A stretch of DNA of 64,000 nt from Vulcanimicrobiales bacterium (GTDB lineage: Bacteria; Vulcanimicrobiota; Vulcanimicrobiia; Vulcanimicrobiales; Vulcanimicrobiaceae). The DNA lies in assembly GCA_038231455.1 (NCBI GenBank), contig JBBRLI010000002.1, positions 96,001 to 160,000 of the forward strand. The letters run 5' to 3'. Below, in pieces: positions 1 to 36,329 of the stretch. The notes beneath the pieces were generated by a model that saw nothing but the letters and a program-made list of their open reading frames with translations, searched no databases and had not been told where the DNA came from. The position numbers were made by a program, and so were the translations under genes. Numbering within the stretch: position 1 is the stretch's first letter; each line of letters opens with the position of its first letter.

Positions 1-1135
1 TTGCGCTCGGGTGTGCTTGCAGTTTCGCATGCGCGAGCGTCGGCGGGTCCGCGGGCGACGTGAGTTCGATCGCCGGGGCGCTCACGGACATCGTAAGGAT
101 TGCGAGAGCCGATCCAAGACCAAGCGTTGCGAGCGCCGGTGCCGAGAGGCGCGGCCGCAAATCGCGACGCGCGTCGAGGAGTTGCTCGATGCGGACCGTG
201 ATTTGTTTGCGCGTCAAGAGAGCCCCGGGCGCGACAATCGCGTGCTCGGGCATGCGCATCTCTTTGGCGAGGCGCCAGAGCGACTCGGCGTACTCTTGCG
301 GGTGGCCCGTTTGTGCGACCACGCAATCATCGGATGCGATCTCGCGTTCCAGTGCGATGCGTTTGCCGACCAGCCAGACGACCGGGTTAAACCAGAAGAG
401 TCGCTCGACCACGCGCTGCGCGAAGTTCGTGTAATCGTCGTAGCGACGGAGATGCGCGTGCTCGTGCATGACGAGCGATTCGATCGCGCCGAGTCCCTCG
501 TGCGTCGCAAGCTCCGTCGGGATCAAGATGACGGGGCGTCCAAATCCAATCGCAACCGGCGTTTCGATTTCGTAGCTCAAGCGCAAATAGATTTCGCGTG
601 CGCGAACATCGGTGAGCCAAGGGAGTTCGCCGGCAAGCGATCCTTCAAGCGGGCTCGACCGGCGTTTCAGACCTTGAACGCGCAGCACGCTTGCGATCAG
701 CATCGCAAAGCCAATCGCGGCCCCGGTCGCCCAGATCACGAGCGCACCGATTGCAATGGACTCCGGGATGGTAATCGTCGGAAGACGAGGCGCCGGTGCG
801 GAGAGCGTCGTCGCTGCTGAAGTGGCGGCAGTCGAGATCGAAGTCGATCCCACGTTCCCGCGATGCGGATGCACCGGCACGGCATCACTCGTCGTGGTCG
901 CGGCTGTGATATAACGGACGTGCGCGAGTGAACTGACGATGCTCGCCACCGGCAAGATGGCGATCGCGAGCAGCGCCAGCGACCACACGGTGTGGCGCGC
1001 AGCCGCGCGCATCGGGAGAAACTTCTCGACGACCAGCCACACGATGCCGGCGAGGAAGGCGCCGACGAGTGCGCTCTCGGCGAGGGCGCGAACGGCAAGG
1101 CGCGGGAGCGCAGCGAGAAGTTCGCTTGGGATCAC
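1..1135 (-). CDS. BlaR1/MecR1-like M56 family metallopeptidase (3' part runs off the window)
   Basis: Read manually because it is absent from the ORF track. GTG at 1135 overlaps the blaI-like stop (GTGA). Hydrophobic N-terminus (IPSELLAALPRLAVRALAESALVGAFLAGIVWL), then LVMHEHAHLRRYDD...LFWFNPVVW...EREIASDD, the M56 HExxH signature, in frame. Confidence 0.9.
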   Translation of the reverse strand, partial: MIPSELLAALPRLAVRALAESALVGAFLAGIVWLVVEKFLPMRAAARHTVWSLALLAIAILPVASIVSSLAHVRYITAATTTSDAVPVHPHRGNVGSTSISTAATSAATTLSAPAPRLPTITIPESIAIGALVIWATGAAIGFAMLIASVLRVQGLKRRSSPLEGSLAGELPWLTDVRAREIYLRLSYEIETPVAIGFGRPVILIPTELATHEGLGAIESLVMHEHAHLRRYDDYTNFAQRVVERLFWFNPVVWLVGKRIALEREIASDDCVVAQTGHPQEYAESLWRLAKEMRMPEHAIVAPGALLTRKQITVRIEQLLDARRDLRPRLSAPALATLGLGSALAILTMSVSAPAIELTSPADPPTLAHAKLQAHPSA

Positions 1136-7983: not shown

Positions 7984-8065
7984 AAGACGTCGAGTGATAC
8001 GAAATTTATCTCTGCGCCCGCAGTACGCGGTCGACGTCCTCAAACCATCCAAGGGAGACCGCTAA

Positions 8066-9771: not shown

Positions 9772-9807
9772 ACAAAAAAGACCGGACGGTTCGCACCGTC
9801 CGGTCTT
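9772..9807 (-). terminator. intrinsic terminator between convergent genes
   Basis: 13-bp stem AAGACCGGACGGT-TCGC-ACCGTCCGGTCTT (9778-9807) with a T-tract on the minus strand. Confidence 0.8.
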
Positions 9808-9821
9808 CGCCTTACGAGGTT

Positions 9822-16385: not shown

Positions 16386-16789
16386 GTGCGGATAGCGACG
16401 GCGAGCGCGTCGATATCTCGACCGACGCGGACGTCGTACGGGTGCGACAGGCCGTCCGCGCGTTTGCGCTGCGGGCCGCGCTCTCGATCGTCGATCAAAC
16501 GAAAATCATCACCGCGGCAAGCGAACTCGCGCGCAACGCCCTTGTCCACGGCGGTGGCGGATTTGCTCGCATCGCCTTAATCGAAGAAAACGGACGCGTC
16601 GGCGTCCGCGCCGCCTTCGAAGATTCTGGCCCGGGAATCGTCGATCTGGAGCGGGCTCTTGTGGGCGGCATCAGCACGGCCGGCGGCCTTGGACTCGGCT
16701 TGTCCGGCAGTCGCCGACTCGTCGATCTCTTTGCGCTTGACTCCGATTCGCGCGGGACGCGCGTCACGGTGACTAAGTGGAAACGCTGA
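16382..16789 (+). CDS. rsbT: Ser/Thr kinase RsbT
   Basis: TAASELARN, DSGPGI, GLGLGLSGSRRLVD, GTRV HATPase boxes. Confidence 0.92.
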   Translation: MSADSDGERVDISTDADVVRVRQAVRAFALRAALSIVDQTKIITAASELARNALVHGGGGFARIALIEENGRVGVRAAFEDSGPGIVDLERALVGGISTAGGLGLGLSGSRRLVDLFALDSDSRGTRVTVTKWKR

Positions 16790-17793
16790 GCCGTGTCGAG
16801 GACGTGTCGTGGTTTCGCGTCGAGGATTCAAGCGCGCCGGGAGCGGTGCGGCGCGCGGCCGTTACGCTTGCCGCGCGACTCGGATACAGCGAGCACCGCA
16901 CGGGAGAAGTGGCGATCGCCGCAACGGAACTTGCGACGAATTTGCATCGACACGCCATCGAAGGGACGATCGTGCTCCGAATTCGGCGCGACACGTTCGC
17001 TGCCGCAATCGAATTGCTCGCGATCGATGGCGGCCCCGGCATCGCCGATCTCTCGGTGTTCGCGCGCGACGGAAAATCAAGCGCCGGGTCGCTCGGCATT
17101 GGCCTTGGCGCTGCGATGCGCCTTGCAACGTGGTTCGATGCCTATTCGCTCCTCGGACGCGGGACGGTCATGATCGCGACCTTTTGGCCGGACGAGCGCA
17201 GCCATATCGGCACGAACATCGCCGGGTTGACCCGCGCAATGATCGATACGGAACCCTGCGGCGATGCGATCGCGCATCGCGAGAGTCCCGAGGTGACGAC
17301 CGTGTTGCTAGCAGATGGACTCGGACACGGAGAACTCGCTGCGGTCGCCTCCCGCGCAGCGGTTCGGGCGTTTGCAATCGATGAGGAGCCGCAGCGCGAT
17401 CCGGTGGCGACGTTACACCTGTTGCACCCCGCCCTCAAGACCACGCGCGGAGCGGCAGTGGGCATCCTGCGGCTCGATTGGGGAAAGCGAGCGATCACCT
17501 TCGCCGGCGTCGGGAATATCGAGGGTTGGGTCGATGATGGCGAGCGGCGTCGATCGCTTGCCTCGACACCCGGCATCATCGGCAGCAACACGCGGAAGAT
17601 CCGAGAATATACGCTCCCGATGCCAACCGCCGGACTCGTCATTCTTCACACGGACGGGTTGACGGGCAAGTGGAATTTGGACGATTATCCCGGGCTGCGC
17701 GGACGCGACCCGCATCTCGTCGCTGCGACGCTGATGCGCGATGCCGGTATCCGAGCGGACGACCGCGGCATCGTTGTCGTGAAGGTCGCATGA
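16777..17793 (+). CDS. HATPase plus SpoIIE/PP2C phosphatase (RsbX-like)
   Basis: TELATNL, DGGPGI, GSLGIGLGA followed by CGD, ADGLGHG, HTDGL and DD. Confidence 0.88.
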   Translation: METLSRVEDVSWFRVEDSSAPGAVRRAAVTLAARLGYSEHRTGEVAIAATELATNLHRHAIEGTIVLRIRRDTFAAAIELLAIDGGPGIADLSVFARDGKSSAGSLGIGLGAAMRLATWFDAYSLLGRGTVMIATFWPDERSHIGTNIAGLTRAMIDTEPCGDAIAHRESPEVTTVLLADGLGHGELAAVASRAAVRAFAIDEEPQRDPVATLHLLHPALKTTRGAAVGILRLDWGKRAITFAGVGNIEGWVDDGERRRSLASTPGIIGSNTRKIREYTLPMPTAGLVILHTDGLTGKWNLDDYPGLRGRDPHLVAATLMRDAGIRADDRGIVVVKVA

Positions 17794-19046
17794 ACGAGTT
17801 GTTGGCAAAACTGCCGCTGCATTTTGCAGAGCATGTCTTTGAGCTGCGGCATGCGGCGCGTGTCGCGTCGGCGGCGCTTGGATGCGATGAGGCCGATCAA
17901 GTGCGATTCGCGACGGCGCTGAGTGAACTGGGCCGCGAAGCGCTCGCGCACGGCGGCGGCTCGACGGCGGCGATCAGCCTCGAACGCGACGGCGCTCTCG
18001 TCATCGACGTCGGTCACTTCCCGCGCAGCGCGCTCGAGGGCAAGGAGATGACGGGGATCGATGCCGCGCGCAAGCTCGTCGGCGATGTCGTCGTGACGGA
18101 TCGAAAATCGCATCCGACGGTAACGGTAACGCTGCGCCTTGCTCGCACGACCTCCCGGCCGCGCGCCACAGCAAACGATCTTCGCCTAGCGCTTTCGATC
18201 AAAGCCGCGCCGCTCGAAGATCTGCGACTCGAAAACAAAGATCTGATCGCAACGCTCGAAGCGCTCAAGTCCAAAGCGACCGAACTCGTGGCGCTTAACG
18301 ATGAACTCGAAGAAACCAATCGCGGCGTCATGGCGATGTATGACACCGAGCGGATCATCGCGCTGAGCCTGCAACACAATTTGCTGCCCGATGCGGCACC
18401 GACGATCGCCGGGATGGACGTTGCGGTCCGGTATGTGGCAAGCGCCGAGCACGCCGAAGTCGGCGGCGATTTCTACGAAATTTTCACGCTACCCGACGAC
18501 AAGATCGCAATCGCCATCGGCGATGTGGCCGGCCATTCGCTCGAAGCGGCAATGGTGATGGCGCAACTGCGCACGGGCATACGCTGCTATCTTGTGGACG
18601 GCTATGGGCCAGCGCAGACGCTCGCACGTCTCAATCGCCTGCTCTTGCAGTTCCATCCCGAGTGGTCGGCGACGGTCTGTTGCGCGATCTACGATCGTCG
18701 AACGGGCCGGTGCGAGGTTGCCAATGCCGGTCATCACCCGCCGCTGCTGCGCACGCGCAGTGGGATCGACTTTCTTCCGCCCGGCGGCACCTTACTCGGC
18801 GTCGACGCGCCGACCGCACCCGAGCATACCGTGGTGTTGGAAAAAGACGACCTTTTCTTGATGTTTACCGATGGACTCATCGAACGGCGCGACGAGTCGA
18901 TCGATACCGGACTCGCGCGTCTTCGAGCTGCGGTAACCGCGCCCGCCGCGCATCTCGATGAACTGTGCGATCGCGTGCTTCGTGAGGTCGGCCCGGTAAG
19001 CGTTCAAGACGATATCGCGATCGTCGCGATTCGTCCGCAAAACTAA
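17790..19046 (+). CDS. RsbT-like N-terminal domain, coiled coil and SpoIIE/PP2C phosphatase (RsbU-like output)
   Basis: FATALSELGR; ELEETNRGVMAMY coiled coil; LQHNLLP, VGGDFY, GDVAGH, NAGHHPP, FTDGLIE, DDIA. ATG overlaps the upstream stop. Confidence 0.88.
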   Translation: MNELLAKLPLHFAEHVFELRHAARVASAALGCDEADQVRFATALSELGREALAHGGGSTAAISLERDGALVIDVGHFPRSALEGKEMTGIDAARKLVGDVVVTDRKSHPTVTVTLRLARTTSRPRATANDLRLALSIKAAPLEDLRLENKDLIATLEALKSKATELVALNDELEETNRGVMAMYDTERIIALSLQHNLLPDAAPTIAGMDVAVRYVASAEHAEVGGDFYEIFTLPDDKIAIAIGDVAGHSLEAAMVMAQLRTGIRCYLVDGYGPAQTLARLNRLLLQFHPEWSATVCCAIYDRRTGRCEVANAGHHPPLLRTRSGIDFLPPGGTLLGVDAPTAPEHTVVLEKDDLFLMFTDGLIERRDESIDTGLARLRAAVTAPAAHLDELCDRVLREVGPVSVQDDIAIVAIRPQN

Positions 19047-19762
19047 GTCGGGTCGGCTCCGAGATACGCGGTCGTGACGGCGCGATTCGTCGCAAGTTCG
19101 GCGCCGGTGCCGCCGAGGACGACGCGCCCCCGTTCGAGCACGTATGCGCGATCGGCCATGGCGAGCGCCCGGCGTGCGTTTTGCTCGACGAGCAAAATTG
19201 TCGTGCCCGCAGCACGCAGTTCGGCGACGATCGCAAAGATCTCGGAGACGAGTTTCGGCGCTAGCCCCATCGAGGGTTCATCGAGCAAGAGGAGCCGCGG
19301 TTTGCTTGCCATTGCGCGGGCAATTGCGAGCATTTGCTGCTCTCCGCCGGAGAGCGAGCCCGCCGGTACGCCTCGGCGCGTTTCGAGAATGGGGAAGCGC
19401 TCGTAGAGCGCGGCGACTGTTTTTGCGCGTTCGCTCTGCGGCGTGAGGGCGGCTGCAATGAGCAAATTCTCATCGACGGACATCGCCTGGAGCATGCGGC
19501 GTCCTTCGGGGACGTGCGCGAGCCCTCGGCGCACGATGTCGTGCGGCGCGACGCGACTGATGTCGAGCCCGTCAAAATGGACGCTGCCGCCGCGTTTGGG
19601 AATGACGCTCGAAATCGCGAGCAGCAGCGTCGTCTTTCCCGCACCGTTGGCACCAACGATCGCGCATAGCGTCCCCGCTTCGAGCTCGAGCGAGACATCG
19701 TGGAGAATTTCGACTTTCCCGTATCCGGCGCGCAGGTTCTCAACGCGCAGCAGCTCGCTCAT
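19043..19762 (-). CDS. livF: branched-chain amino acid ABC transporter ATPase
   Basis: GANGAGKTT, VPEGRR, LSGGEQQMLAIARA, LLLDEPSMGL. Confidence 0.92.
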   Translation of the reverse strand: MSELLRVENLRAGYGKVEILHDVSLELEAGTLCAIVGANGAGKTTLLLAISSVIPKRGGSVHFDGLDISRVAPHDIVRRGLAHVPEGRRMLQAMSVDENLLIAAALTPQSERAKTVAALYERFPILETRRGVPAGSLSGGEQQMLAIARAMASKPRLLLLDEPSMGLAPKLVSEIFAIVAELRAAGTTILLVEQNARRALAMADRAYVLERGRVVLGGTGAELATNRAVTTAYLGADPT

Positions 19763-20481
19763 ATCGCAACCGTATCCGCGCCGAGGTAAGCTTCGATCAC
19801 GAGCGGATCCACGGCGATCGACGCCGGCGTGCCGCGCGCGATAACCTCGCCGAAGTTCAGCACCACGACGGCATCGCATGCCGCGCGGACGAGCGTCATG
19901 TCGTGCTCGATGAGCAGCATGCCGATGCCGCTTGCGGCGATCGTGCGGATGATACTCGTGAGGCGCGCGGTTTCCACCGGGTTCATGCCGGCGGCGGGTT
20001 CATCGAGCAAGATCACCGTCGGATTTGAAGCCAGCGCACGTGCGATTTCCAGCCGTCGCTGGTCGCCGTAACTGATCGATGCGGCAGGCGCATCGAGGTC
20101 CACTTCGTTGAGATCGACGCGCGCGAGCAGTGCGCGTACCGCACGCTCGTCGAAAACCTTGCTCTGCGTGAATGCACCGGCGCTAACGTTGGTGCGCACG
20201 TCGAGCGCCCCGAAGAGGCGGATGTTTTGATACGTGCGCGCGATTCCGGCGCGCGCGATGCGATGCGGCGCAATGCCGTCGATGCGCTTCCCGCCCAGCC
20301 GGATGCTGCCCGCATCGATGCCGACAATTCCGGTAACGGCGTTGATCAGTGAGGTCTTCCCGGCGCCGTTGGGTCCGATAAGGCCGAGGACGGAACCCGC
20401 CTCGACGGCGAGGGCGACATCTCGCACGGCGGTTACTCCGCCATAGCGCACGGCTACGCCGTCAAGTTCGAGTCCGCTCAT
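19759..20481 (-). CDS. livG: branched-chain amino acid ABC transporter ATPase
   Basis: GPNGAGKTS, ARTYQNIRLF, SYGDQRRLEIARAL, LLDEPAAGMN, VIEAYLG. Confidence 0.92.
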   Translation of the reverse strand: MSGLELDGVAVRYGGVTAVRDVALAVEAGSVLGLIGPNGAGKTSLINAVTGIVGIDAGSIRLGGKRIDGIAPHRIARAGIARTYQNIRLFGALDVRTNVSAGAFTQSKVFDERAVRALLARVDLNEVDLDAPAASISYGDQRRLEIARALASNPTVILLDEPAAGMNPVETARLTSIIRTIAASGIGMLLIEHDMTLVRAACDAVVVLNFGEVIARGTPASIAVDPLVIEAYLGADTVAI

Positions 20482-21305
20482 GATTTCGCGCGCCGCCAAA
20501 GTCCCGCGATCCCTTGCGGAGCAAAGAGGACGACGCCCAGGAGAATCGCGCCATTCGTCACTTCGCGATAGTCCGCAAGAAACCGAATCGTCTCCGGGAG
20601 CAACGTAAGGACGATCGAACCAACAACCGCGCCGATGGCGCTCGTCGACCCGCCGATTACGCACGCGACGAGGATCTGCTCCATACGTCCAAAACCGAAA
20701 TCGGCCGGCGTGATGAAGAAGTTGGAGTGCGCGTAGAGCACGCCTGCGATTCCGGCGATCGCGCCGCCGAGCGCGAGCGTCCAGAAACGGACACCCGCCG
20801 TATCGACGCCCACGCCGCGCGCGGCGGTTTCATCCTCACGCGTAAGGGCGATCGCGAGCGCGAACTTCGTCCGGCTCAGGAGATAGAGCGCGATGCAAAC
20901 GATGATGAGCGCGCCGTAGATGACGAACGTATTGGCATCGGATGGAATCTGCGAGAGCCCCTCGCCGCCACCGGTGAGTTTGAGATTATTTGCAACGATA
21001 CGCAGAATTTCGCCGAAGCCGATCGTCGCAATCGCAAGAAAGACACCGCGCAAACCGCGAACGGGCAGTGCAAGCAGCATCGCTGCGAGTGTCGAGGCGA
21101 GTGCCCCAATCGCGATGCACGGCAGGAGCGGTAGACCCGCGGAGACCGCGAGGATCGCTCCGATATACGCGGCAATGCCCATGAATGCAGCCTGCGCGAG
21201 TGCAAGTTGTCCCGCTTGCAAACAGACCGAAAGCGAGAGGGCGAGCAGCGCGTTGATCGCAAGCTGATCGAACAACTTGGAATGGGAGGTAAAAAACGAG
21301 ATCAT
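20478..21305 (-). CDS. livM: branched-chain amino acid ABC transporter permease
   Basis: GQL.LAQAAFMGIAAY, LRGVFLAIATIGFGEI, TGG.EG; multi-TM. Confidence 0.9.
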   Translation of the reverse strand: MISFFTSHSKLFDQLAINALLALSLSVCLQAGQLALAQAAFMGIAAYIGAILAVSAGLPLLPCIAIGALASTLAAMLLALPVRGLRGVFLAIATIGFGEILRIVANNLKLTGGGEGLSQIPSDANTFVIYGALIIVCIALYLLSRTKFALAIALTREDETAARGVGVDTAGVRFWTLALGGAIAGIAGVLYAHSNFFITPADFGFGRMEQILVACVIGGSTSAIGAVVGSIVLTLLPETIRFLADYREVTNGAILLGVVLFAPQGIAGLWRRAKS

Positions 21306-22180
21306 GCGGCGCGCAGTGCGCGCTTGCCGAAGAGTCCGCGCGGACGTAAGACCAGGATCAGAAACATAACGCCGAAGGCGATTGCGTCCCGCCAGTTCGA
21401 TGAGATGTACGCAACCGATAGCGTTTCGACCGCCCCGAGAATGAAGCCGCCAACGACGGCTCCCGTAATCGATCCCATTCCGCCCAGAATGATAACCGCA
21501 AGACCCTTGAGTTCGATTCCGGCACCCATGTCGACCGTGACGCTATTATAGTGCAGGCCGGTGAGAATTCCGGCGGCGCCGCCGAGTGCCGAGGCGATGA
21601 AAAACGTCATCGCGATCGTCTTCTCGAGATCGACGCCGAGCAACACGGCGGCAACGCGGTCTTCCGCGACGGCGCGGATGTTGCGCCCGAGTGCCGTTGC
21701 GCGCAAGACGTAACTCAAGCCGAGCATCAAAGCCAGAGCCGCGCCGAACGTCACGAGTTCGACTGTCGTGACGGTAATCGCGCCAAGGTGGATCGGCGGT
21801 GCATCGCCTAAAGCATTGGGAAAATGTCGCTCGTCGATGCCCCAGATGCCGCGCGCGATCGCGCCGATGATGATCGAGACGCCAATCGAGGAAATCAGGG
21901 GAATAAGCGTGCCGGCGTTCCGTCTACGCAGCGGGGCGAACGCAACGCGATCGAGTGCGATGCCCACCAAGCCCGCGAGCAGGCAGCCGCCTAGAAACGC
22001 AAGCCAGAGCGGCACGCCGGCCGCCACGAGCGCATACGTGGCGAATGCCGCGATCATGAAGATCGCGGCATGTGCCAGATTGAGGATGTCGAGTACGCCG
22101 AATACGAGCGTATACCCGACCGCGAAGAGCGCGTAGACGGACCCAACGACGAGCCCGTTGACGAGCTGTTGAAGCAGCAC
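21302..22180 (-). CDS. livH: branched-chain amino acid ABC transporter permease
   Basis: QQLVNGL..GSVYAL.AVGYTLVFGVL..LN.AH, ILGGMGSI.GA. Confidence 0.92.
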   Translation of the reverse strand: MLLQQLVNGLVVGSVYALFAVGYTLVFGVLDILNLAHAAIFMIAAFATYALVAAGVPLWLAFLGGCLLAGLVGIALDRVAFAPLRRRNAGTLIPLISSIGVSIIIGAIARGIWGIDERHFPNALGDAPPIHLGAITVTTVELVTFGAALALMLGLSYVLRATALGRNIRAVAEDRVAAVLLGVDLEKTIAMTFFIASALGGAAGILTGLHYNSVTVDMGAGIELKGLAVIILGGMGSITGAVVGGFILGAVETLSVAYISSNWRDAIAFGVMFLILVLRPRGLFGKRALRAA

Positions 22181-22183
22181 GCG

Positions 22184-23311
22184 TTATTTAAAGTACGCGA
22201 AGCCGCCTTTGACGATCTGCAATATCACGGGCGCGCTCTTCACGTCGCGGTTGCCGTCAAAGCCAATCGGGCCAAGGACTGTTTTTGCAAGCGGCAGTGC
22301 CTTGAGGCCGCTGCAAATTTCCGCGGGAGTCGTCGCGCCGTTCTTGACGACGGCGGCAATGACTTGCGCGCCCGCATACGCTTGTGCGGCGAACTGATCG
22401 GGATCACCGCCGAAACGTTTTTTATAGCGTTCGACGAACGCTTTGTTGCCGGTGTAGTTCGCACCGATGAACCATGCTGCGCCGACGGCCGTGCCGGCGG
22501 CACCGGGTCCCGCGTCGTTGTAAATCGTCGGTGAGTTGAGGCCGTTGCCGCCCATCAGGTGGCCCGTGTAGCCGAGCTTGCGCGCCTGTGCGATGATCTT
22601 CACGCCTTCGGGTGCGAGCGCGCCGATCACGATGAGATCGGGCTTCTTGTCGTTGATCTTCGTGAGCTGCGCTTGGAAGTCGACGTCTTTTTGGTGGAAC
22701 GTCTCGGTGTCGACGATCTGCACGCCGGCCTTATCGAGTTGCTCTTTGAAGATGTCGCCGTTGGTTTTGGTAAAGGCGTTATCGTCGCCGTAGATGATCG
22801 CGGCGGTTTTATACTTCCACGATTTAAGCGTCTTTTTGATCGTCGTCGGAATCACTTGCGCCTCGGAGAGTGAGACCCGATAGACGCACGAACCAAGCGA
22901 CGTGATGCCGTCGGCGGTCGTCGAGGTGCCGAGCACCGGGAAATTTGCTTTGACAGCGATCGGGTCGGCTTTCTTTGCTTCGCCCGAGAGTGTCGGCCCA
23001 AGGACAACGGCGCTGCCGTCGGTCGTGAACTTCTGCATGAGCGTTGCGACTTGGTTACCGTCGCTTGCCGCATCTTGCACCTCAAAGGACAAGTTCGCGC
23101 CGCCCGCATCGATGAGACCGCTTTTGATGTCGTCGTTTGCGAGCTCGTAGGCGTTCTTCTGCGGCGTGCCGTACACGCCGGCGCCGCCGGTAACATCGGC
23201 GATCACACCGGCCTTAACGGTCTTTCCGGCGGCGGGGCCTTTGCCGGCCGCAAATGCGGGCGTCGTGAGTGCGAGTGCCGCAATGGCGGCGATCGAGAGA
23301 AACGTACGCAT
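22184..23311 (-). CDS. branched-chain amino acid ABC transporter substrate-binding protein (LivK/LivJ-like)
   Basis: Signal peptide, GPTLS, DF.AQLTKI, AAQAYAG; first gene of the liv operon. Confidence 0.9.
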   Translation of the reverse strand: MRTFLSIAAIAALALTTPAFAAGKGPAAGKTVKAGVIADVTGGAGVYGTPQKNAYELANDDIKSGLIDAGGANLSFEVQDAASDGNQVATLMQKFTTDGSAVVLGPTLSGEAKKADPIAVKANFPVLGTSTTADGITSLGSCVYRVSLSEAQVIPTTIKKTLKSWKYKTAAIIYGDDNAFTKTNGDIFKEQLDKAGVQIVDTETFHQKDVDFQAQLTKINDKKPDLIVIGALAPEGVKIIAQARKLGYTGHLMGGNGLNSPTIYNDAGPGAAGTAVGAAWFIGANYTGNKAFVERYKKRFGGDPDQFAAQAYAGAQVIAAVVKNGATTPAEICSGLKALPLAKTVLGPIGFDGNRDVKSAPVILQIVKGGFAYFK

Positions 23312-23339: not shown

Positions 23340-26036
23340 TTAGGCGCGGCTTGCGGTGCTCCCCGCTAGTTGTCCCGTCTCTTCGGCGAAAAGCATCTGC
23401 CGCTCGCTTTCGAGATCGTGGGTCGATTCGACGGAGCGCAAACTCTCGTTGCTGTGATAGTCGATCAGCATGGACATCTCTTCAAAATTGCCGTGCATGG
23501 CAAAGGCGCGCTGCCCTTCGCTCGTTGCCTCGCGCTGCGCCTCGGAGAGCGTGTCGATGATGCTCTCGGTAAATGTGTCGATGCGCGCGAGCGCTGCCTC
23601 GGCGAGCCCCGCCTGCTTTGCGCTCCGCTCCGCTTCGCCGACGCCCGAGGCAATCGCGGTTGCCGCGGCCTTGCCGCGGCCGTCGAGATCGGCGAGGACG
23701 CCGCGCATCTGCTGCGTCGAGGCGCGCGTCTTGTCGGCAAGGCTGCGAACTTCGGTTGCGACCACCGCAAAGCCGGCGCCGTGATCGCCGGCGCGCGCCG
23801 CTTCGATTGCGGCGTTGAGCGCGAGCAGGTTGGTGCGGTCGGAGACGCCCCGGACCAGCGTGATGATCTCGCCGATCTGCCGCATGAGCGCGCCGAACTG
23901 CGTGAGGGCGTGACGGCTCTCCATCGCCATCGTTGCGAGCGTCGAAACCGCCTCGGCGAGACCGCGGACGGTTTCGCGCGTCGCGTGCACTTCATCTTGT
24001 GCCGTCGCGAAGCGCATCAGGAGATCGGTAAAGTCGTTCGCGATCTGCGTGTTGCGTTCGGCCATCTGCGCCGAGCGCTCCCCGAGTTCGAGCAATCGCG
24101 GCGTTTGTTCTTTCCCATGCATCGCCGACTCCGTCGCGGAGGTACGCACGGCGGAAATCGCCGTGTCGATCGCCTCGATGATGTCGTGAATTTGAAATTT
24201 GCGACGTGCGGCGCGCTGGGCTTCCTGGGATTGCGGCCGATCGATCTTGTGTGCGTCGCCGCCGAGCAGCAGATCGTAAATGTCATCGGGAAAAAGCGGT
24301 TGCATCCGTTCCCAAACGAAGTGACCCGCGCGCGAAAATGCGCCGCGCTCGGCTTCGGTGAGGTCGCGGACCTCCATCGTCTTGCGCAGTTCCGCAAGCG
24401 CGTGTTCCTCTTCGTCGTGCGCGATCGCGCGATGCCACGGAATCACCTCGGCCATCGTATCGATGACGAGCGCGCGGTCTTCCTCACCCAGGCGTGCTAG
24501 CGTTTCGCTGTTTGCGAGCACGACTTGCGTGTTGTAGGTGTGCGCGGTGAGCGTGAGGTGGCGCTGCACTTCGTGCAGCTTGGCGCCGTAAATGTTGGCG
24601 AGCGGATTTTCTTGCCCGTCGAGAGCACCCGTCTTGAGGGCTTCGTAAACGCCCCCAAATGGCATGACTTTCGGTGCGGCGGAGAACGCGTGCATCAGCG
24701 CAAGATAGACGACTGAGTCCTGAATGCGCATGCGCATTCCGCGCACGTCCGCCGGCGTTGCAATTGCGCGCGAGGCGCTCGTCATGTGGCGGATGCCGTT
24801 CTCGAAATACCCCATGCCGGTAAGGCCGAACGGTTCGAACGCCGAGAGGACGCGCGCGCCGAGCCCGCCGTCGAGAACGCGATGTGCGGCGCTCGCGCTC
24901 GGAAAAAGAAACGGCAGATCGAAGACTTGCGCGAGCGGAAGGAGCGAACCCGCGATGTATGTCGTGACGCTCACGAAATCGAGTTGACCCGAGCGCACCT
25001 GCATGAGCATCTCGAGTTCGCTTCCGGCGAAAGGCACCTGGAGTTCGACGGTGATGCGTCCGCCGGTGCGCTCGCGAACCTGTTGCGCGAAGCGCTCCCA
25101 TGCGCGCGACGGCGGATAGCCCGGCGGTAATTGCGTCGCGCAGCGTAAGGTCGTGATCGCTTCATCGCGCGGATGCGCGGGGCGCGAGAAATACATGATC
25201 TCCGCGCCGTAGTAGGCGAGGCGCTGCGTCGAAAACGCGGCTTCGATCGCTTGTCGCCCTTGGGTCTCGGCGATTTGCGCGAGCGTTTGCGTTTCGCGCC
25301 CGATCGCCGTCGACGTCTCCGCGTGGGCGCGGCCGATCGCAACCGATTCTTGCAGTGCGCGCATAACGTCTTGCGCGAGTGCTGCGACGCGTTCTAGGGA
25401 CGAGCGCGCGGCGATTGCGATCGGTGCGGATTTTGCGGACCGCTCGGCCGATTCGCGCACGGAGGTGATGGTGACTTCGGCTTGCGCTTGAATCTGTTCG
25501 ACGAGTTCTTTGATCGCATGCGTCGAGTCGCTGGTCGCCTTCGCCAGTCGTCCGACCTCGCCCGCGACAACCGCAAAGCCGAGTCCGTGCGTACCCGCGC
25601 GCGCCGCTTCGATCGCGGCGTTGAGCGCGAGAAGCTGGGTTTCGTCGCTCACGTCCTCGACGAATTCGGTCATCTGCCCGATCTCGCCCATCAGTCGACC
25701 GAAATCGTCCATCGCGGCAGCCGTTCCGGTTGAAAGTTCGGCGAGCCGCTGAACGGACGAAAGCAGTTCCTCGACGATGTGTAGCGAGTCGGTGAGATCG
25801 CCCGATGCGCTGCGCGCATCCGCCTGCGTTGCCTCCAGACGCGCGACCGTTGCGGTTGACTCCTCAGCGAGTAAACCCGCCGATTCGGCGAGTGCGGCCA
25901 TGAGCATTGTCTGTTCTTGGGCGTTTGCTGCAATCGATTCGGAAGCGGTACGTACGGCATCGGCCGATGTCGCTAGCGACTGCGCGAATTCATCGAGACG
26001 CGGAATATCGGGCAGCAAGTCCAGGACGATCGACAA
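23340..26036 (-). CDS. soluble fusion: methyl-accepting signalling domain, TRAP DctP binding domain, second methyl-accepting domain
   Basis: Two [26 protein letters not shown] hairpin tips flank a DctP-type domain ([48 protein letters not shown]). No TM helix or signal peptide. Confidence 0.85.
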
Positions 26037-26048
26037 GGGCAGGGCTCC

Positions 26049-26855
26049 CTAGGCACGGACCAAGTGCGGACGGAGCAAACGCATAAACGCGCCAAAACGC
26101 GTGTCGTTCACATCGCTTGATTCGAGCCCGGTATATACGACGAGGACGTAGCGCTCGCCGCTTTCGAGCTCCAAGATACCACCGTCGTGCGAGACCTCAT
26201 CGGTGTCCCCCGTTTTGTGCATGAAGCGGTCGCCGGCGCAGAGGCCAGCCGGGAGCTTCGATTGCCAATACTGGTCGGCAAGCGTTTGGCGCAAAATTGA
26301 GGCGCCGGGGATGCGGCCTGCGTCGATCGCCTCGAAGAGGGTCGCGGCGTCACGTGCGGAGTGGGTGTTGCGACCGGTCGCCTCGGGGTCGTCGATGAGC
26401 GGCAGCGCGCCGGAGAGCTTGCGGTGGATCTCCGTTTGTTCGAGTCCAATGGAAGCGCAGAAATCCGTCGCGCGCGCGCGGCCGACGATGTCGATGAGGA
26501 CGTTGGTTGCCACGTTGTCGGAACGCGAAAGCATCAACTCGACGAGCTCCGCGACGGTCGCAACGTATCCCGCCTTCATCGGCGAGGGAGCGTCGTTGAC
26601 CGTCATGTTGTCCGGGCCGACTTCGAAACGCTGGCCCCACCAAAGCCGCTTGCTAGCTACGTCGCTCGCCACGGCTGCCGCCAAGGGGGTTTTGATCATG
26701 CTGGCCGGGTAGAGCGGGCTGCCGTTGTCTAAGGCCGCGCGGACGGGGGTTGCGCCCTTGAGGCACGCGAGGTAGATCGTCGCGGTTTCGAGACCCGCGG
26801 AGGCACTCAGGAGGGCGAGGGTCTCCGGTCCTACCACGCGGATCGGCCGATGCAA
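26049..26855 (-). CDS. class A beta-lactamase-like serine hydrolase
   Basis: ASMIK (SxxK), SDN and HKTG motifs. No evident signal peptide; start uncertain. Confidence 0.82.
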   Translation of the reverse strand: MHRPIRVVGPETLALLSASAGLETATIYLACLKGATPVRAALDNGSPLYPASMIKTPLAAAVASDVASKRLWWGQRFEVGPDNMTVNDAPSPMKAGYVATVAELVELMLSRSDNVATNVLIDIVGRARATDFCASIGLEQTEIHRKLSGALPLIDDPEATGRNTHSARDAATLFEAIDAGRIPGASILRQTLADQYWQSKLPAGLCAGDRFMHKTGDTDEVSHDGGILELESGERYVLVVYTGLESSDVNDTRFGAFMRLLRPHLVRA

Positions 26856-31997: not shown

Positions 31998-32729
31998 TCA
32001 GGCCGTGCGCTTGAGTTTTGCGACCGCCGCGCGGTCGACAATCCAGAGCAGTTCTCCGTCGGTTGGCGCGACAAGCTGAATCGGGTAGAGCGCCGGATTT
32101 TGCGGTCCCTCGAGGACGGCAGCGAGTGCGTCGGCTTTGCTGTCGCCGCCCGTCTCGATTGTTACGCTGCGCGCGTGGTTGATCACGCGCGGGGTGAGCG
32201 TGACGCGGTGCGTTGCAAATTTCTCGACCCACGGGGCGGCGGTCAATTTGCCGTCGTCGATTTGATCGAGCGTCCCGGGGAAGATCGAAGCGGTGTGCCC
32301 GTCGGGACCCATCCCTAAGTGGATGAGATCGAAGCGCGGTCGAGCGCCCATCTCGCGTACGAGGACTTGCGCGTAGGCATCGGCCGCGGCTTGCGGTTCG
32401 TCCTCGCCGCGGATGCGAAAGATTTGACTGTCCTCGATACGCAGCGGCGCGAACAACGACTCATTCGTCATGCGGTAATTGGAGTCGACGTGGTCCGGCG
32501 GCACGCAGCGCTCATCGCCGAAGAAGAAACGAATGGATTCCCAGTGGACGCGATCTTTGCGCGGCGAAACGGCGAGTAGCGCGTTCATGGCCTTGGGCGT
32601 CGAGCCACCGGCAAGCGCGACATCGAACGAGCCTCGCTCCATGATCGCCGCGCGGGCCTTTTCCACAAAATGATCCGCAGCGCGCTCGGCGAGTTCGACG
32701 TCGCCGGCGACGATGACGAGATTGTCCAC
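31998..32729 (-). CDS. pgl: 6-phosphogluconolactonase
   Basis: ALAGGSTP, FFGDERCVPP....SNY, LGMGPDGHTASIFP, RVTLT. Confidence 0.95.
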   Translation of the reverse strand: MDNLVIVAGDVELAERAADHFVEKARAAIMERGSFDVALAGGSTPKAMNALLAVSPRKDRVHWESIRFFFGDERCVPPDHVDSNYRMTNESLFAPLRIEDSQIFRIRGEDEPQAAADAYAQVLVREMGARPRFDLIHLGMGPDGHTASIFPGTLDQIDDGKLTAAPWVEKFATHRVTLTPRVINHARSVTIETGGDSKADALAAVLEGPQNPALYPIQLVAPTDGELLWIVDRAAVAKLKRTA

Positions 32730-32739
32730 GACCGTCTTT

Positions 32740-33741
32740 CTAAGCGAGAATTGCGCCGACCATGCGCAGGGCGGTTTCGAAGATCTTATCGGTTTGGCGT
32801 TCGAGGATCGCGCGTTCGATGAGCGAGGCGTTGTCGATTGCCTGCAGCGTTGCGAGGCGCTCCGGTCGCTCTTTCTTGCCCTCGACGTAGAGCCGTACGA
32901 CGGCGGGGTCGCTGGTCACTTCTGCAATGTATGTCGAATTTGTGGTTGTGATGGCGACGGTTTGCACGCGCCGCATCCCGCCGTCTCGTACGAGCGAAAA
33001 TTTAATCGGCGTGCCGTCGCGGTCGCAGAATTCATCGTGCCCGCACGCCTTCCAACCGAGACGGCTGCCGAGCCAACCCGCAAGATAAAGCGCCTCGGCG
33101 CTGGAACCCGAGACGATCTTCAAGGACCGAATGCAAAAGAGTTCTTCCCTAAGCGCAGCGTCGTCGAAGAATTGTGCCACCATATCGTGCCACGGACTCA
33201 GCCGCATCCACGCAAGATCGCGTAGGGCAAGGCGTCGCCTCGTGCGTTCGAAGAACGCCGAAAGACCGAGGATCGCCCCGTCGTCGCGGGTGGAACCCGA
33301 CGAATCGACGACGACGTCTGCGGCAATTTCGATGAGTTTATCGAAGCGCGGACTGCCGGCGGTTTCCTCCGCCGTCCACCAGAGGACCGTCGGCAAATCG
33401 GGGATCGTGAGCGCGTGCGCGATCGCACGCAGTTCGTCGGCGCTCATTCCGCGGCAAGCAAGCGTAATGCGTTCGCTCTTGATCGTGCCGTGGCCGTCGC
33501 CGGAAAACGTCTCGACGGTCGCGCCGTCTTCGAGTCCGGTCGTATCGAGCACGATCATGCGCGAGGGATGTTTGTCGGCGATCATCGTCGCGCGCTCCAT
33601 CACCCACTCGCGCCGCTCGGCGTCATCGATAAACACGATGAAATTGATGGTCGTCGCGCTGACGGTCGTCGCGTCGTGCTTGAGACGCGAGAGTTCCGCG
33701 CGAATCGAATCGACGTCGGCGGGAAGATGTTGCGCGTTCAT
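32740..33741 (-). CDS. opcA: glucose-6-phosphate dehydrogenase assembly/effector protein OpcA
   Basis: HPSRMIVL, PDLPTVLWW, VVDS, DLAWMRL.PW, LAGWLGSRLGW. ATG overlaps the zwf stop. Confidence 0.88.
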   Translation of the reverse strand: MNAQHLPADVDSIRAELSRLKHDATTVSATTINFIVFIDDAERREWVMERATMIADKHPSRMIVLDTTGLEDGATVETFSGDGHGTIKSERITLACRGMSADELRAIAHALTIPDLPTVLWWTAEETAGSPRFDKLIEIAADVVVDSSGSTRDDGAILGLSAFFERTRRRLALRDLAWMRLSPWHDMVAQFFDDAALREELFCIRSLKIVSGSSAEALYLAGWLGSRLGWKACGHDEFCDRDGTPIKFSLVRDGGMRRVQTVAITTTNSTYIAEVTSDPAVVRLYVEGKKERPERLATLQAIDNASLIERAILERQTDKIFETALRMVGAILA

Positions 33742-35297
33742 ATGGTCCTCCAATCCCGGCCGTCGTCTTCGAGCATGGCATCCGATGCGATCGGCCCTTG
33801 TCCGCCGGCGGCGTAGTTGGGAAAACTATCGTCCTTGAGTTGCGTCCATCGATCGAGGATCGGGGTGACGGCCTGCCATGCCGCCTCGACGGCATCCCAA
33901 CGCGTGAAGAGCGTCGCATCGCCGCGCATCGCATCGCCGATGAGGCGTTCGTACGCGGGTGCCGAGACGACGCCAAAGCCCGTGCCGTAGTTGAAGTCCA
34001 TGCTTACCGCGCGAATGTGCATCTTGGGACCCGGCACTTTGGCCGAGAAGCGCAGCGAGACGCCTTCTTCGGGCTGGATCTTCATGACGAGCACGTTGTT
34101 GTCGATCGAGTCGCCCGCCTCACCGAAGAGGCGATGCGGAATGCCTTTGAAGCGGACCGCAATCTCCGAGTACTTCCGCGCGAGACGCTTCCCGGAGCGC
34201 AGGTAGAACGGCACTTCGGCCCAGCGCCAGTTGTCGATGTAGAACTTGACTGCTGCGTACGTCTCGGTATTGGAGTTCGGGGCAACGTCCGGTTCGTCGC
34301 GATAGCCTTGCACGGGCTTGCCATCGATCATTCCCGCGGCATATTGTCCGCGCGCGGCATCGTACATTACGCGATCGGGATCGATCGGACGCAGTGCTGA
34401 GAGCACCTTGAACTTCTCATCGCGGATGTTGTCCGCGTTCGGCGAGACCGGCGGTTCCATCGCGACGAGGGCGAGCAAGTTGATGACGTGATTTTGAATC
34501 ATGTCGCGCAGGGCCCCTGCGTTATCGTAGTAGCCGCCACGGAGTTCGACGCCGACGGTTTCGGATGCCGTGATCTGAATCGAGTCGACGTAGCGACGAT
34601 TCCAAAGCGGCTCGAAGATCACGTTGGCAAAACGTAAGGCCATAATATCTTGGACGGGTTCTTTGCCAAGATAATGATCGATGCGGTAGACCTGCTTTTC
34701 TTCGAACACTTTGCCGACGTCGGACTGGAGCGAACGCGCCGACTGCAAATCCGTACCGAACGGCTTCTCGATGATGATGCGCGTCCAGCCTTTGGGATTG
34801 TCTTTCGGCCCGAGACCCGCTTGCGCGAGCATATCGACGATCTTGCCGAAGACCGAAGGCGGCGTCGAGAGATAGAAGAGCCGGTTGCCGTTCGTCCCGA
34901 GTTCTTCGTCGTTTTTATCGAGCTGTTCTTTGAGGGCTTTAAATGCGGCCGCGTCATCGAACGTGCCCGAGACGTACGAGAGTTTCTTTGCGAAGTCCGA
35001 CCACAGCGGATCGCGCGCGGGGCCGGAGCGCGAAAATTCATCCACGCTCTTTTTCATCTCCGTTCGGAATTCTTCGGCCGAGAATTCCGAACGTGAGAAG
35101 CCCACGATGCCGAAGTTGGCCGGCATGATGTCGCCTAGGCGCAGATTGTACATCGCGGGCAGCAGCATGCGTTTCATCAGGTCGCCGGACGCGCCGAAGA
35201 AGACGATGCTGCACGGATCGCTGATGCGATTGCTCGCAACGCCAGCACGCAGCGGGTTTTCATCGAGGTTCGGGCGATCCAGAGTGATCTCGGACAT
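33738..35297 (-). CDS. zwf: glucose-6-phosphate 1-dehydrogenase
   Basis: FGASGDL, IEKPFG, RIDHYLGKE, GALRDMIQNH, VPFYLRSGKRL. Confidence 0.97.
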   Translation of the reverse strand: MSEITLDRPNLDENPLRAGVASNRISDPCSIVFFGASGDLMKRMLLPAMYNLRLGDIMPANFGIVGFSRSEFSAEEFRTEMKKSVDEFSRSGPARDPLWSDFAKKLSYVSGTFDDAAAFKALKEQLDKNDEELGTNGNRLFYLSTPPSVFGKIVDMLAQAGLGPKDNPKGWTRIIIEKPFGTDLQSARSLQSDVGKVFEEKQVYRIDHYLGKEPVQDIMALRFANVIFEPLWNRRYVDSIQITASETVGVELRGGYYDNAGALRDMIQNHVINLLALVAMEPPVSPNADNIRDEKFKVLSALRPIDPDRVMYDAARGQYAAGMIDGKPVQGYRDEPDVAPNSNTETYAAVKFYIDNWRWAEVPFYLRSGKRLARKYSEIAVRFKGIPHRLFGEAGDSIDNNVLVMKIQPEEGVSLRFSAKVPGPKMHIRAVSMDFNYGTGFGVVSAPAYERLIGDAMRGDATLFTRWDAVEAAWQAVTPILDRWTQLKDDSFPNYAAGGQGPIASDAMLEDDGRDWRTI

Positions 35298-35304
35298 GCT
35301 CTCC

Positions 35305-36231: not shown

Positions 36232-36329
36232 GGTTGGCCGAGCCCCATTTCGGAAAGTGTGGAAAGGTAGCAAGGGCTTCCAAGCAAGCCGCGGGGCTTC
36301 CCGCGATGGAGCCCCGCGTTATTCGATTG

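Follow-up and report, generated by a model that had tools for sequence, protein, structure and literature searches.

A cytoplasmic chemoreceptor with a TRAP-type binding domain between two diverged signalling hairpins, predicted to pair within one chain, in Eremiobacterota

We analysed a stretch of 64,000 nucleotides from a Vulcanimicrobiales bacterium (contig JBBRLI010000002.1, positions 96,001 to 160,000; from here on the window) and in it one gene that encodes a chemoreceptor of 898 amino acids (aa). In this protein (P0001), a solute-binding domain of the tripartite ATP-independent periplasmic (TRAP) transporters, DctP, stands between two signalling hairpins of the methyl-accepting chemotaxis protein (MCP) type. 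The protein is very probably a soluble chemoreceptor that binds a ligand. The more specific reading that we prefer, and to which we give somewhat better than an even chance, is that it is a single-chain, pseudo-dimeric receptor for carboxylates that works in the cytoplasm of flagellated Eremiobacterota and feeds one CheA. According to this reading, the two hairpins would fold back on each other, tips together, into a one-chain version of the four-helix bundle that is otherwise built from two identical chains. The DctP domain would be located at the bundle end opposite the tips, with a flexible linker on either side, one from the helix that closes hairpin 1 and one to the helix that opens hairpin 2, and would bind a carboxylate metabolite through the classical site of the TRAP binding proteins. 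Judged by sequence, the tips of the two hairpins are fixed as unequal: hairpin 1 is without three near-universal tip residues, which hairpin 2 keeps.

The layout of the gene is given in Table 1. It is a single open reading frame (ORF) that starts with TTG, and a Shine-Dalgarno-like AGGGAG, read from the sequence, lies 8 nucleotides (nt) 5' of this codon and overlaps the stop codon of the preceding gene. MCPsignal (PF00015) gave two separate matches of 93.8 and 97.4 bits (cut-off 34.6). With the whole protein as query, Pfam MCPsignal matched in two stretches and DctP (PF03480) matched residues 301-578 (E 5.2e-71, 239.7 bits), while the NCBIfam model TIGR00787 dctP scored 219.5 bits against a cut-off of 175.05. 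When pieces of the protein were scanned singly, residues 1-295 and 599-898 were assigned to MCPsignal (E 1.5e-26 and 1.1e-27) and residues 296-598 to DctP (E 4.3e-72). An earlier note on this DNA, made from the letters alone, had described an ORF of 898 aa with MCP tips near 25.6 kb and 23.8 kb and had expected the order MCPsignal-DctP-MCPsignal. This order was obtained both on the whole protein and on the separate pieces, and the tips centre on G148 and G750. The tip motif with ...GF.VVA.EV, which in MCPs serves the contacts within receptor trimers and with CheA/CheW, is present in both hairpins and invariant across the family, hairpin 1 deviating from the MCP tip at the three positions discussed below. 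The highest Kyte-Doolittle mean over 19 residues is 1.47, with no segment above 1.6, compared to maxima of 2.3-3.1 for the nine membrane MCPs of the same genome. Hydropathy thus revealed no signal peptide, hydrophobic N-terminus or membrane segment, in agreement with the earlier note. MCP signalling domains operate in the cytoplasm and, since the receptor is soluble, its DctP domain must be cytoplasmic as well.

Table 1. Features of the receptor gene, with positions counted from the first nucleotide of the window
Feature	Position	Strand	Evidence
Whole receptor gene, soluble MCP hairpin - DctP - MCP hairpin	23340..26036	-	ORF, Pfam, NCBIfam, homologues
AGGGAG, Shine-Dalgarno-like	26045..26050	-	read from sequence
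Hairpin 1, residues 13-283	25188..26000	-	Pfam, alignment, AlphaFold2
Tip of hairpin 1, residues 135-161, centred on G148	25554..25634	-	family alignment
Linker 1, residues 284-295	25152..25187	-	family alignment, modelled as coil
DctP/TRAP solute-binding-protein domain, residues 296-597	24246..25151	-	Pfam, NCBIfam, structure matches
Codon of R437, carboxylate salt-bridge Arg (Arg173 in 4P47 numbering)	24726..24728	-	alignment to 4P47
Linker 2, residues 598-614	24195..24245	-	family alignment, low model pLDDT
Hairpin 2, residues 615-885, canonical tip, variable outer surface	23382..24194	-	Pfam, alignment, AlphaFold2
Tip of hairpin 2, residues 737-763, centred on G750	23748..23828	-	family alignment
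Unconserved 13-aa tail and stop codon	23340..23381	-	family alignment

Conservation was determined in a family alignment of 80 rows, consisting of the query and 79 relatives; partial or shorter relatives (P0021, P0063, P0079, P0083-P0085 and P0087-P0090) were left out. The solved protein closest in sequence to the central domain is 4P47 (E 8.2e-49, query residues 296-564 against chain residues 31-301). The DctP part of an AlphaFold2 model of the receptor matched 4P47 with a Foldseek TM-score, normalised to the target, of 0.89, and VIA aligned it with apo IseP (8T9T) over 303 of 308 residues at a root-mean-square deviation (rmsd) of 2.3 Å (Z 33.8). As far as the available part of PMC11668362 describes it, the carboxylate site of TRAP binding proteins comprises, in 4P47 numbering, Arg152, Arg173 and Asn213 together with an aromatic side chain at position 196 and an acidic one at 76, and it is Arg173 that makes the salt bridge to the carboxylate. 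The alignment places E340, R416, R437, F460 and N477 of the receptor on D76, R152, R173, Y196 and N213, respectively. Each of these five residues is invariant in 80 of 80 rows, in a domain in which only 65 of the 302 positions are, and such an invariant site amid a variable remainder is hard to explain other than by ligand binding. The arginine of the RMRI motif that the earlier note had pointed out is R437, aligned to the arginine of 'lkiRt' in 4P47, so that the identification of the central domain as DctP now extends to the full fold and all five site residues. The domain has the sequence and the two-lobed fold of the TRAP binding proteins, together with the Arg/Arg/Asn set, the aromatic lid and the acidic residue; what it does not share with them is export and work with DctQM, as it is internal and has no hydrophobic N-terminus. 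The receptor therefore has a DctP-fold domain but is no transporter subunit. By analogy, its ligand is perhaps a carboxylate of the small hydroxy acid or sugar-acid type: the solved relatives covered in the same part of PMC11668362 bind pantoate, erythronate or sugar acids, many of these ligands having been co-purified.

The two hairpins (residues 13-283 and 615-885) are 34% identical (E 3e-27) with no net length difference, and all four arms, of about 135 residues each, are constant in length throughout the 80 rows. The linkers are variable in both length and sequence, linker 1 measuring 10-14 aa (mean entropy 2.0) and linker 2 14-19 aa (mean entropy 2.56). Conservation is higher in hairpin 1 than in hairpin 2, and the contrast is strongest in the far half of the N-arm (entropy 1.01 versus 1.69). 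The non-canonical tip residues of hairpin 1 in the query are Q134, L152 and G162. As shown in Table 2, hairpin 1 deviates at these positions in every member of the family, whereas hairpin 2 keeps the residues found in generic MCPs, in the other MCPs of this genome and in related proteins with a single hairpin. All three positions fall outside the interface that is predicted between the hairpins (see below). The fixed differences at outward-facing tip positions suggest a division of contact jobs, and the two faces of the 'dimer' may share out receptor-receptor contact and CheA/CheW contact. The hairpins would be free to specialise in this way because the two halves are different polypeptide segments.

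Table 2. Residues at the three tip positions at which hairpin 1 deviates
Tips compared	Number of tips	Position 1	Position 2	Position 3
Generic MCPs	32	N in 30	R/K in 32	R/K in 32
Other MCPs of this genome	10	N in 10	R in 10	R in 9
Two-domain relatives	19	N in 19	R in 17	R in 18
Hairpin 2 of the family	76	N in 76	K/R in 73	R in 76
Hairpin 1 of the family	80	Q/E in 80	L in 80	G in 80

The predicted fold is consistent with pairing of the hairpins within the chain. AlphaFold2, run on the whole chain with the family alignment, gave a mean predicted local distance difference test score (pLDDT) of 83.3 and a predicted template modelling score (pTM) of 0.62, with helices at 14-146, 148-284, 616-752 and 754-886, a coil at 285-295, the alpha/beta DctP domain in between, and low confidence at 591-615 around linker 2 (block means 54-66). 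The single-chain four-helix bundle 6Z0C (199 residues) superposed on this model over 199 of 199 residues (rmsd 3.2 Å, Z 17.4, range 90..813), and the TorS sensor, also a helical bundle, over 216 residues (3.3 Å, range 66..832). We used these superpositions as a ruler for the geometry of the model and not as a sign of homology; since they run across both hairpins, parts of both must lie side by side around the tips. The VIA list for the whole model was filled by the DctP domain and held DctP structures and generic helical bundles, with no MCP cytoplasmic-domain chain among them, to which we attach no weight because one domain took up the list. We also cut the chain in linker 2 and presented residues 1-600 and 601-898 to ESMFold2 as separate partners, which scored 0.61, compared to 0.00 for the best of three controls. 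Of 80 solved complexes, 58 attain the mark used for this score, as do 2 of 110 mismatched pairs. Between runs, at least 80% of the contacts agreed, and the partner pLDDT was at least 78. Heptad-spaced contacts connected residues 17-279 to 614-881 at equal distances from the tips (164/735, 175/724, 133/766), so that the hairpins are predicted to pack parallel and in register, like an ordinary MCP dimer. MCP homodimer bundles have already been solved, and the ESMFold2 result may therefore reflect likeness to known structures. On the strength of these models we regard an intramolecular four-helix bundle as probable. The predicted interface is conserved relative to the remainder of each hairpin (entropy 0.61 versus 1.01 in hairpin 1, 0.66 versus 1.65 in hairpin 2). 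Outside it, the far end of hairpin 1 carries a set of near-invariant residues (R29, E33, A36, A37, T43, F268, Q271, Y275 and G277), and the equivalent end of hairpin 2 has almost none. Size complementarity between the hairpins was considered as further evidence and dropped: of six equivalent conserved positions with a size difference of 50 cubic angstroms or more, the pair A74/F676 alone is in the predicted interface, which is too weak to count.

The origin of the second hairpin can be read from two-domain relatives. An HMMER search over 1.84 billion representatives at 50% identity returned one full-length representative of the receptor (P0006) plus fragments, and about 30 of the best 150 representatives were two-domain proteins with one MCP hairpin followed by DctP. 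These occur in several phyla, both as soluble forms of 570-620 aa (P0124-P0135) and as forms of 640-720 aa with an N-terminal hydrophobic anchor (P0134-P0163), and they align end to end, in one stretch, with residues ~10-585 of the receptor at 25-40% identity (32-40% for those of 570-620 aa). The same genome encodes a soluble two-domain paralogue of 639 aa about 20 kb before the window start (G000:C2:73587-75539 (-), identical to L020:1432-3351), the DctP domain of which is 40% identical to that of the receptor. Unlike the receptor, the two-domain proteins have canonical tips; they also have no second hairpin and must therefore pair as two chains with two DctP domains. We built a maximum-likelihood tree of 52 hairpins, comprising both hairpins of 11 of the 80 family rows, 22 two-domain representatives and the paralogue, five of the nine membrane MCPs, and both hairpins of an 866-aa protein described below. 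Hairpins 1 and 2 came out as sister groups (98/87), each monophyletic (100/99), and both lie within the clade of soluble MCPsignal-DctP hairpins (100/97), the hairpins of the two-domain relatives being the sister clade of the two together. So far as the sequences tell, the computation shows that the three-domain family derives from two-domain MCPsignal-DctP proteins in which the hairpin was duplicated internally and its copy came to follow DctP. DctP was then already a receptor sensor before this family arose, and what is new here is the duplicated and diverged second hairpin. The proposal in the earlier note that a transport binding protein had been repurposed as a cytoplasmic sensor thus stands in so far as the domain is cytoplasmic and has an intact site, but the repurposing predates this receptor and was inherited from the two-domain family. 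A locus in Binatia (L026:5864-9498), examined as a candidate three-domain receptor, turned out to hold two tandem two-domain genes instead; they overlap by 4 nt and are 70% identical, and in place of DGQENP they have DGQHSP and DAQGSG, a hint that the ligand site has changed. It is conceivable that such a tandem MCPsignal-DctP pair was the precursor of a fused form with two hairpins.

A second receptor in this genome also has two hairpins. This soluble protein of 866 aa (G000:C1:63817-66417 (+), identical to L015:139-2739) contains two MCPsignal domains and a C-terminal domain with no Pfam assignment, which matches PDC/Cache sensor domains in structure (Z 10-11.5, rmsd 2.3-3.0 Å). Its family comprises 143 proteins at E <= 1e-60; the named sources are mostly Eremiobacterota genera, with a few rows labelled Candidatus Acidoferrum, Limnocylindria and Xanthomonadales. 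Three of the four arms are of fixed or nearly fixed length in 61 aligned members, the N-arm of hairpin 1 including the N-terminal region measures 147-154 aa, and the loop between the hairpins 26-54 aa. In the AlphaFold2 model (pLDDT 86.6, pTM 0.63), both hairpins are covered by the superposition of 6Z0C (199 of 199 residues, rmsd 2.7 Å, range 145..562), and the single-chain ROP 1YO7 superposes over 120 of 120 residues (rmsd 2.0 Å, range 163..540). Like the DctP receptor, this protein is soluble, has two hairpins, one sensor and a variable connecting loop, and is predicted to form a bundle; the difference is that its PDC/Cache-like sensor follows both hairpins and does not stand between them. 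In the tree, its hairpins group together and apart from those of the DctP receptor (86/90, long branches), which points to a separate duplication. Doubling of the hairpin in a soluble one-sensor receptor thus seems to have happened twice in this phylum.

The genome (G000, 3.71 Mb, 93.7% complete) provides the partners through which such a receptor would act. One CheA and one CheW adjoin CheY, CheC, a PilZ protein and flagellar export genes, and CheW domains are found only on this contig (C9); there are two CheR matches (C9 and C3) and one CheB (C9). We infer that the output of the receptor goes to the single CheA via CheW. The genome has 12 MCP genes, three of them for soluble proteins, and within the window (C2:96001-160000) MCPsignal matched nowhere but in the two hairpins of this ORF. 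In line with the earlier note, which had seen no che or dctQM genes in the window, family searches for CheW, CheR, CheB and DctM place all their matches outside it, DctQ not having been searched singly. We further examined a phylum sample of 200 other genomes, some of them single-contig, with 113 from the family that carries the receptor and 87 from 20 other families. The three-domain receptor occurs in 18 of these genomes, all in the one family (18 of 113, versus 0 of 87). Seventeen copies are full-length and one is frameshifted (L141, G115:C7, ~8007-10620 (-)): residues 14-592 and 614-883 lie in different frames, with the shift in the variable linker 2; the gene may be a pseudogene, may truly be split into hairpin 1-DctP and hairpin 2, or may look broken through an error of sequencing. 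CheW domains are present in 48 of the 113 genomes of the carrier family (a tally that includes the unpublished G177 and G128). All 18 carriers are among these 48, each with exactly two CheW-domain matches (CheA and CheW), and the receptor is found in none of the 65 CheW-negative genomes. We take this as a pattern and not as a statistic, because related genomes are not independent. Triple CheW domains in one frame (~600-700 aa, CheW3-like) were seen only in other families (G007, G014 and G026).

Instead of pairing within the chain, the receptor might be a bivalent homodimer, DosM-like or V-shaped, in which like hairpins pair across two chains and the two resulting bundles are joined by the pair of DctP domains. 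Such a molecule would bridge two receptor layers of a cytoplasmic array or two neighbouring trimers, and the ligand would change the geometry of the bridge. The precedent is DosM of Vibrio cholerae (VC1403), a receptor of the F9 system that likewise has two signalling domains in one soluble chain (PMC7534058, PMC9321776, in the parts available); it is described as a long rod, tipped at both ends, that spans two baseplates (PMC7534058) and stabilises two-layer cytoplasmic arrays (PMC7534058, PMC9321776). Moreover, the parent two-domain proteins must be homodimers, so that at one time hairpin 1 formed like-with-like pairs, both tips retain most of the MCP motif, and the arrangement lies outside what one-chain structure predictions sample. 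The differences from DosM are nevertheless considerable. DosM-type receptors accompany CheW3, a triple CheW, and the F9 gene cluster, and 98% of DosM homologues are without a sensor domain, according to the available part of PMC9321776. By contrast, neither this genome nor any of the 18 carriers has a triple CheW or the F9 system, their CheW domains being those of CheA and one ordinary single-domain CheW. The receptor has a sensor, its hairpins were duplicated within a different receptor lineage and are predicted to fold back on each other, and its DctP domain is connected by coils of variable length and not by continuous helices. The comparison with DosM is weak for want of CheW3 and F9 and because of these variable linkers, and on the two features that could be compared the receptor falls outside the DosM class. 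The loss of three tip residues in hairpin 1 is also easier to tolerate if this hairpin was never the sole performer of tip functions, and a weak hint is that A74 of hairpin 1 lies opposite F676 of hairpin 2 in the predicted interface, as a small-large pair. We therefore consider the bivalent homodimer rather unlikely, though it is the main rival of our reading. Of the two options that the earlier note had named, a single-chain pseudo-dimer or an array bridge, AlphaFold2, ESMFold2 and the sequence data favour the pseudo-dimer, and the missing triple CheW and F9 system speak against the bridge.

How the DctP domain of a single-chain pseudo-dimer would signal is a separate matter. Closure upon ligand binding may change how DctP docks on hairpin 1, whose far end has a conserved and exposed patch; the changed docking would alter the packing of the bundle, and thereby control the single CheA through CheW. 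Docking in trans is known from the maltose-binding protein (MBP), which in its closed form docks on Tar (PMC8050422, in the part available); that interaction is periplasmic and takes place between separate proteins. For the tethered DctP domain, we think docking on the hairpin 1 patch possible but rather doubtful. The earlier note had proposed that an open/close motion couples the two hairpins; such a lever is unlikely, since both linkers are coils that vary in length and sequence and are not continuous helices, and docking of the tethered domain would agree better with the data. In TRAP binding proteins the N-terminus does belong to domain I and the C-terminal segment to domain II (PMC11668362), so that closure would shift the two attachment points relative to each other, and this movement might contribute to signalling. 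Several points weigh against our preferred reading as a whole. With both linkers variable, it is hard to see a rigid route by which DctP would pass a signal to the bundle, and the single observation behind the docking idea is the conserved patch. The bundle in the AlphaFold2 model was read from superposition ranges, and is thus indirect. The ESMFold2 controls were unrelated proteins and not MCP hairpins, so that the score does not speak for a specificity of hairpin 1 for hairpin 2, and predictions with one chain or two halves, which cannot sample the pairing of twin hairpins, would bury the hairpins together anyway. 4P47 is an apo structure, and the solved relatives do not allow the ligand to be named. 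Across 13 loci, the neighbourhood gives no link to che genes, TRAP membrane subunits or a catabolic pathway. Finally, no strict methylation-site motif is conserved in the 80 rows.

This last point also bears on the possibility that the protein has the pseudo-dimer shape but does not sense, DctP being a structural cap or a protein-protein module and the whole a scaffold, a modulator of the array or a relic with no output. Adaptation by CheR/CheB is indeed unsupported, as no strict methylation motif is conserved. One loose methylation-like site (residues 37-44) is present in 68 of the 80 sequences, a CheR/CheB-docking pentapeptide was not seen in the C-terminal tail on inspection by eye, and the tail itself is missing in 61 of 80 relatives. 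An attempt to assign a heptad class by comparison with the membrane MCPs of the genome was given up, as the forced fixed-window alignment was uninformative. The outer face of hairpin 2 evolves fast (entropy 1.65 at positions not in the predicted interface), and this, like the lack of a functional gene neighbourhood, would fit a non-sensing scaffold as well. However, five invariant ligand-site residues in a domain that is otherwise mostly variable would not be expected of a mere cap, hairpin 2 has a canonical tip, and the gene occurs only in genomes with CheA/CheW. A scaffold that does not sense is thus quite improbable.

Still less probable is a sensor coupled to transport, in which DctP would meet DctQM from the cytoplasmic side or report flux. 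A single TRAP system, which includes a separate binding protein and a fused DctQM-type frame, is encoded on contig C5, the only contig with DctM, and the public name of the receptor family, 'DctP family TRAP transporter solute-binding subunit', would suggest such a link. However, the sensor is only 27% identical to the true TRAP binding protein of this genome, the TRAP locus is on another contig, and no dctQM stands beside the receptor in 13 of 13 neighbourhoods. TRAP binding proteins contact DctQM on the outer face of the membrane, whereas the receptor has no export signal. Compared with the TRAP solute-binding proteins (DctP, SiaP, IseP; 4P47, 8T9T, 2CEY), the receptor domain is of the same family and fold and has the same carboxylate residues, but it is embedded between hairpins, with neither a signal peptide nor an adjacent dctQM. 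This transporter naming is shared by P0002-P0090 ('DctP family TRAP transporter solute-binding subunit', 'TRAP-type transport system periplasmic protein' or alike), and it is misleading for a cytoplasmic chemoreceptor.

The three-domain form is rare but well documented. A word-indexed search that covered 5.8 billion proteins listed 120 matches. Both PF00015 and PF03480 are present in 89 of them (P0002-P0090), which are 52-92% identical to the receptor at E <= 2.4e-176, and in 90th place comes a generic MCP with 97 bits. The named sources of the 89 are Eremiobacterota (Baltobacteraceae, Vulcanimicrobiaceae, Velthaea), except for one record labelled Verrucomicrobiae, and the protein-atlas cluster of the receptor has 249 members with Vulcanimicrobiota as the commonest phylum. 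A pattern scan of species genomes yielded mostly generic MCPs among the matches listed. Eight of the listed loci had long matched spans, and only L025 (Baltobacteraceae) has two tips in one ORF; L027, L028, L029, L031, L055, L061 and L071 were rejected as three-domain receptors, being adjacent separate genes. An assembly chimera of an MCP gene and a dctP gene, for which one could cite that an independent assembly, probably of the source sample, breaks exactly at both MCP tips, where 31-mers are common to other MCPs and mis-joins could arise, is excluded by the identical three-domain order in the 89 database proteins and in 17 other sampled genomes, single-contig ones included. A contig of that same independent assembly, corresponding to 23802-25629, spans both domain junctions, the places that the earlier note had wanted checked, with 0 differences, and the full-length homologues meet its concern about a chimera. 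In a word search of sequencing runs, only the probable source sample contained more than 7% of the words of the receptor gene, other runs having small shares, and no RNA sample was listed as containing the gene.

Receptors of related kinds are known. The Atlas clusters MCPsignal+NMT1, MCPsignal+Phosphonate-bd and MCPsignal+SBP_bac_3 are soluble MCPs with a fused two-lobed binding-protein sensor, as in the receptor, but they have one hairpin (511-645 aa) and other binding-protein families, and the use of such Pfam families as sensor domains has been described (PMC9602780, in the part available). Soluble MCPs with binding-protein-type sensors and receptors with double signalling domains are thus already known kinds. 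What we did not find described is a DctP domain between two diverged hairpins of one chain, the fixed asymmetry of the tips, and the apparent repeat of this doubling in a second family. At the level of listings and abstracts, a literature search found neither an MCP with a DctP domain nor the chemoreceptors of Eremiobacterota described in any paper, in keeping with the earlier note, the author of which knew this architecture from no characterised protein.

In textbooks, chemoreceptors are symmetric homodimers, but the environments of the two protomers differ within trimers of dimers and core units. The asymmetry extends to ligand signalling itself, and it is hard to study since both protomers share one sequence. 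It is tempting to regard the receptor as a natural single-chain 'dimer' with heritable asymmetry, each hairpin specialised for complementary tip contacts, with one tethered sensor, an arrangement that arose twice in the phylum. This idea is tentative, and we rate it at somewhat less than an even chance. If true, the two-fold symmetry of chemoreceptors would be dispensable, and these proteins would be a ready-made tool for asking which protomer does what in the signalling core unit. If at least the fold-back holds, the family would be a natural experiment on which half needs which contacts, the halves having already diverged at exposed tip positions, and one sensor per bundle could suffice. The TRAP binding-protein fold would join the cytoplasmic sensor modules known from chemoreceptors. 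The lineage consists of soil and sediment bacteria, and the receptor points to taxis towards organic-acid metabolites in Eremiobacterota, a widespread but poorly cultured phylum, in which the name 'TRAP transporter solute-binding subunit' will mislead metabolic reconstructions.

The surroundings of the gene were rejected as a functional linkage, since synteny is confined to the three closest relatives (62-65% identity). Only in these are the Liv-type ATP-binding cassette (ABC) transporter (a Peripla_BP_6 protein, two permeases and two ATPases; 19043-23311 (-), 28 nt after the receptor stop) and TetR/HlyD/OEP genes kept beside the receptor. In the clade with 52-56% identity, the receptor lies beside genes for an amidase, a racemase, DXS, SecG and an oligopeptide ABC ATPase. 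The first gene downstream of the receptor in the window encodes the Peripla_BP_6 protein, which is coincidentally the partner of DctP in some odd fusions of ~625-726 aa (DctP with the Liv-type Peripla_BP_6; P0165, P0197, P0214 and P0264). A fusion of a caspase (Peptidase_C14) with DctP, of 651 aa, was also seen (P0258). Upstream, a beta-lactamase-fold gene (26049-26855 (-); Pfam Beta-lactamase2 E 3.5e-40; NCBIfam class A 74.8 bits versus a cut-off of 200) ends 12 nt before the receptor gene, and it adjoins the receptor in only two of the three closest relatives. Elsewhere in the window, two adjacent genes for SpoIIE-type phosphatases (16777-19046 (+)), the first of which also has HATPase_c_2 (anti-sigma-kinase-like), look like a partner-switching module. 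A cluster of the oxidative pentose-phosphate pathway (31998-39170 (-)) contains 6-phosphogluconolactonase, OpcA, glucose-6-phosphate dehydrogenase and a 6-phosphogluconate dehydrogenase-like gene, together with a gene for a fusion of transaldolase and phosphoglucose isomerase of 946 aa.

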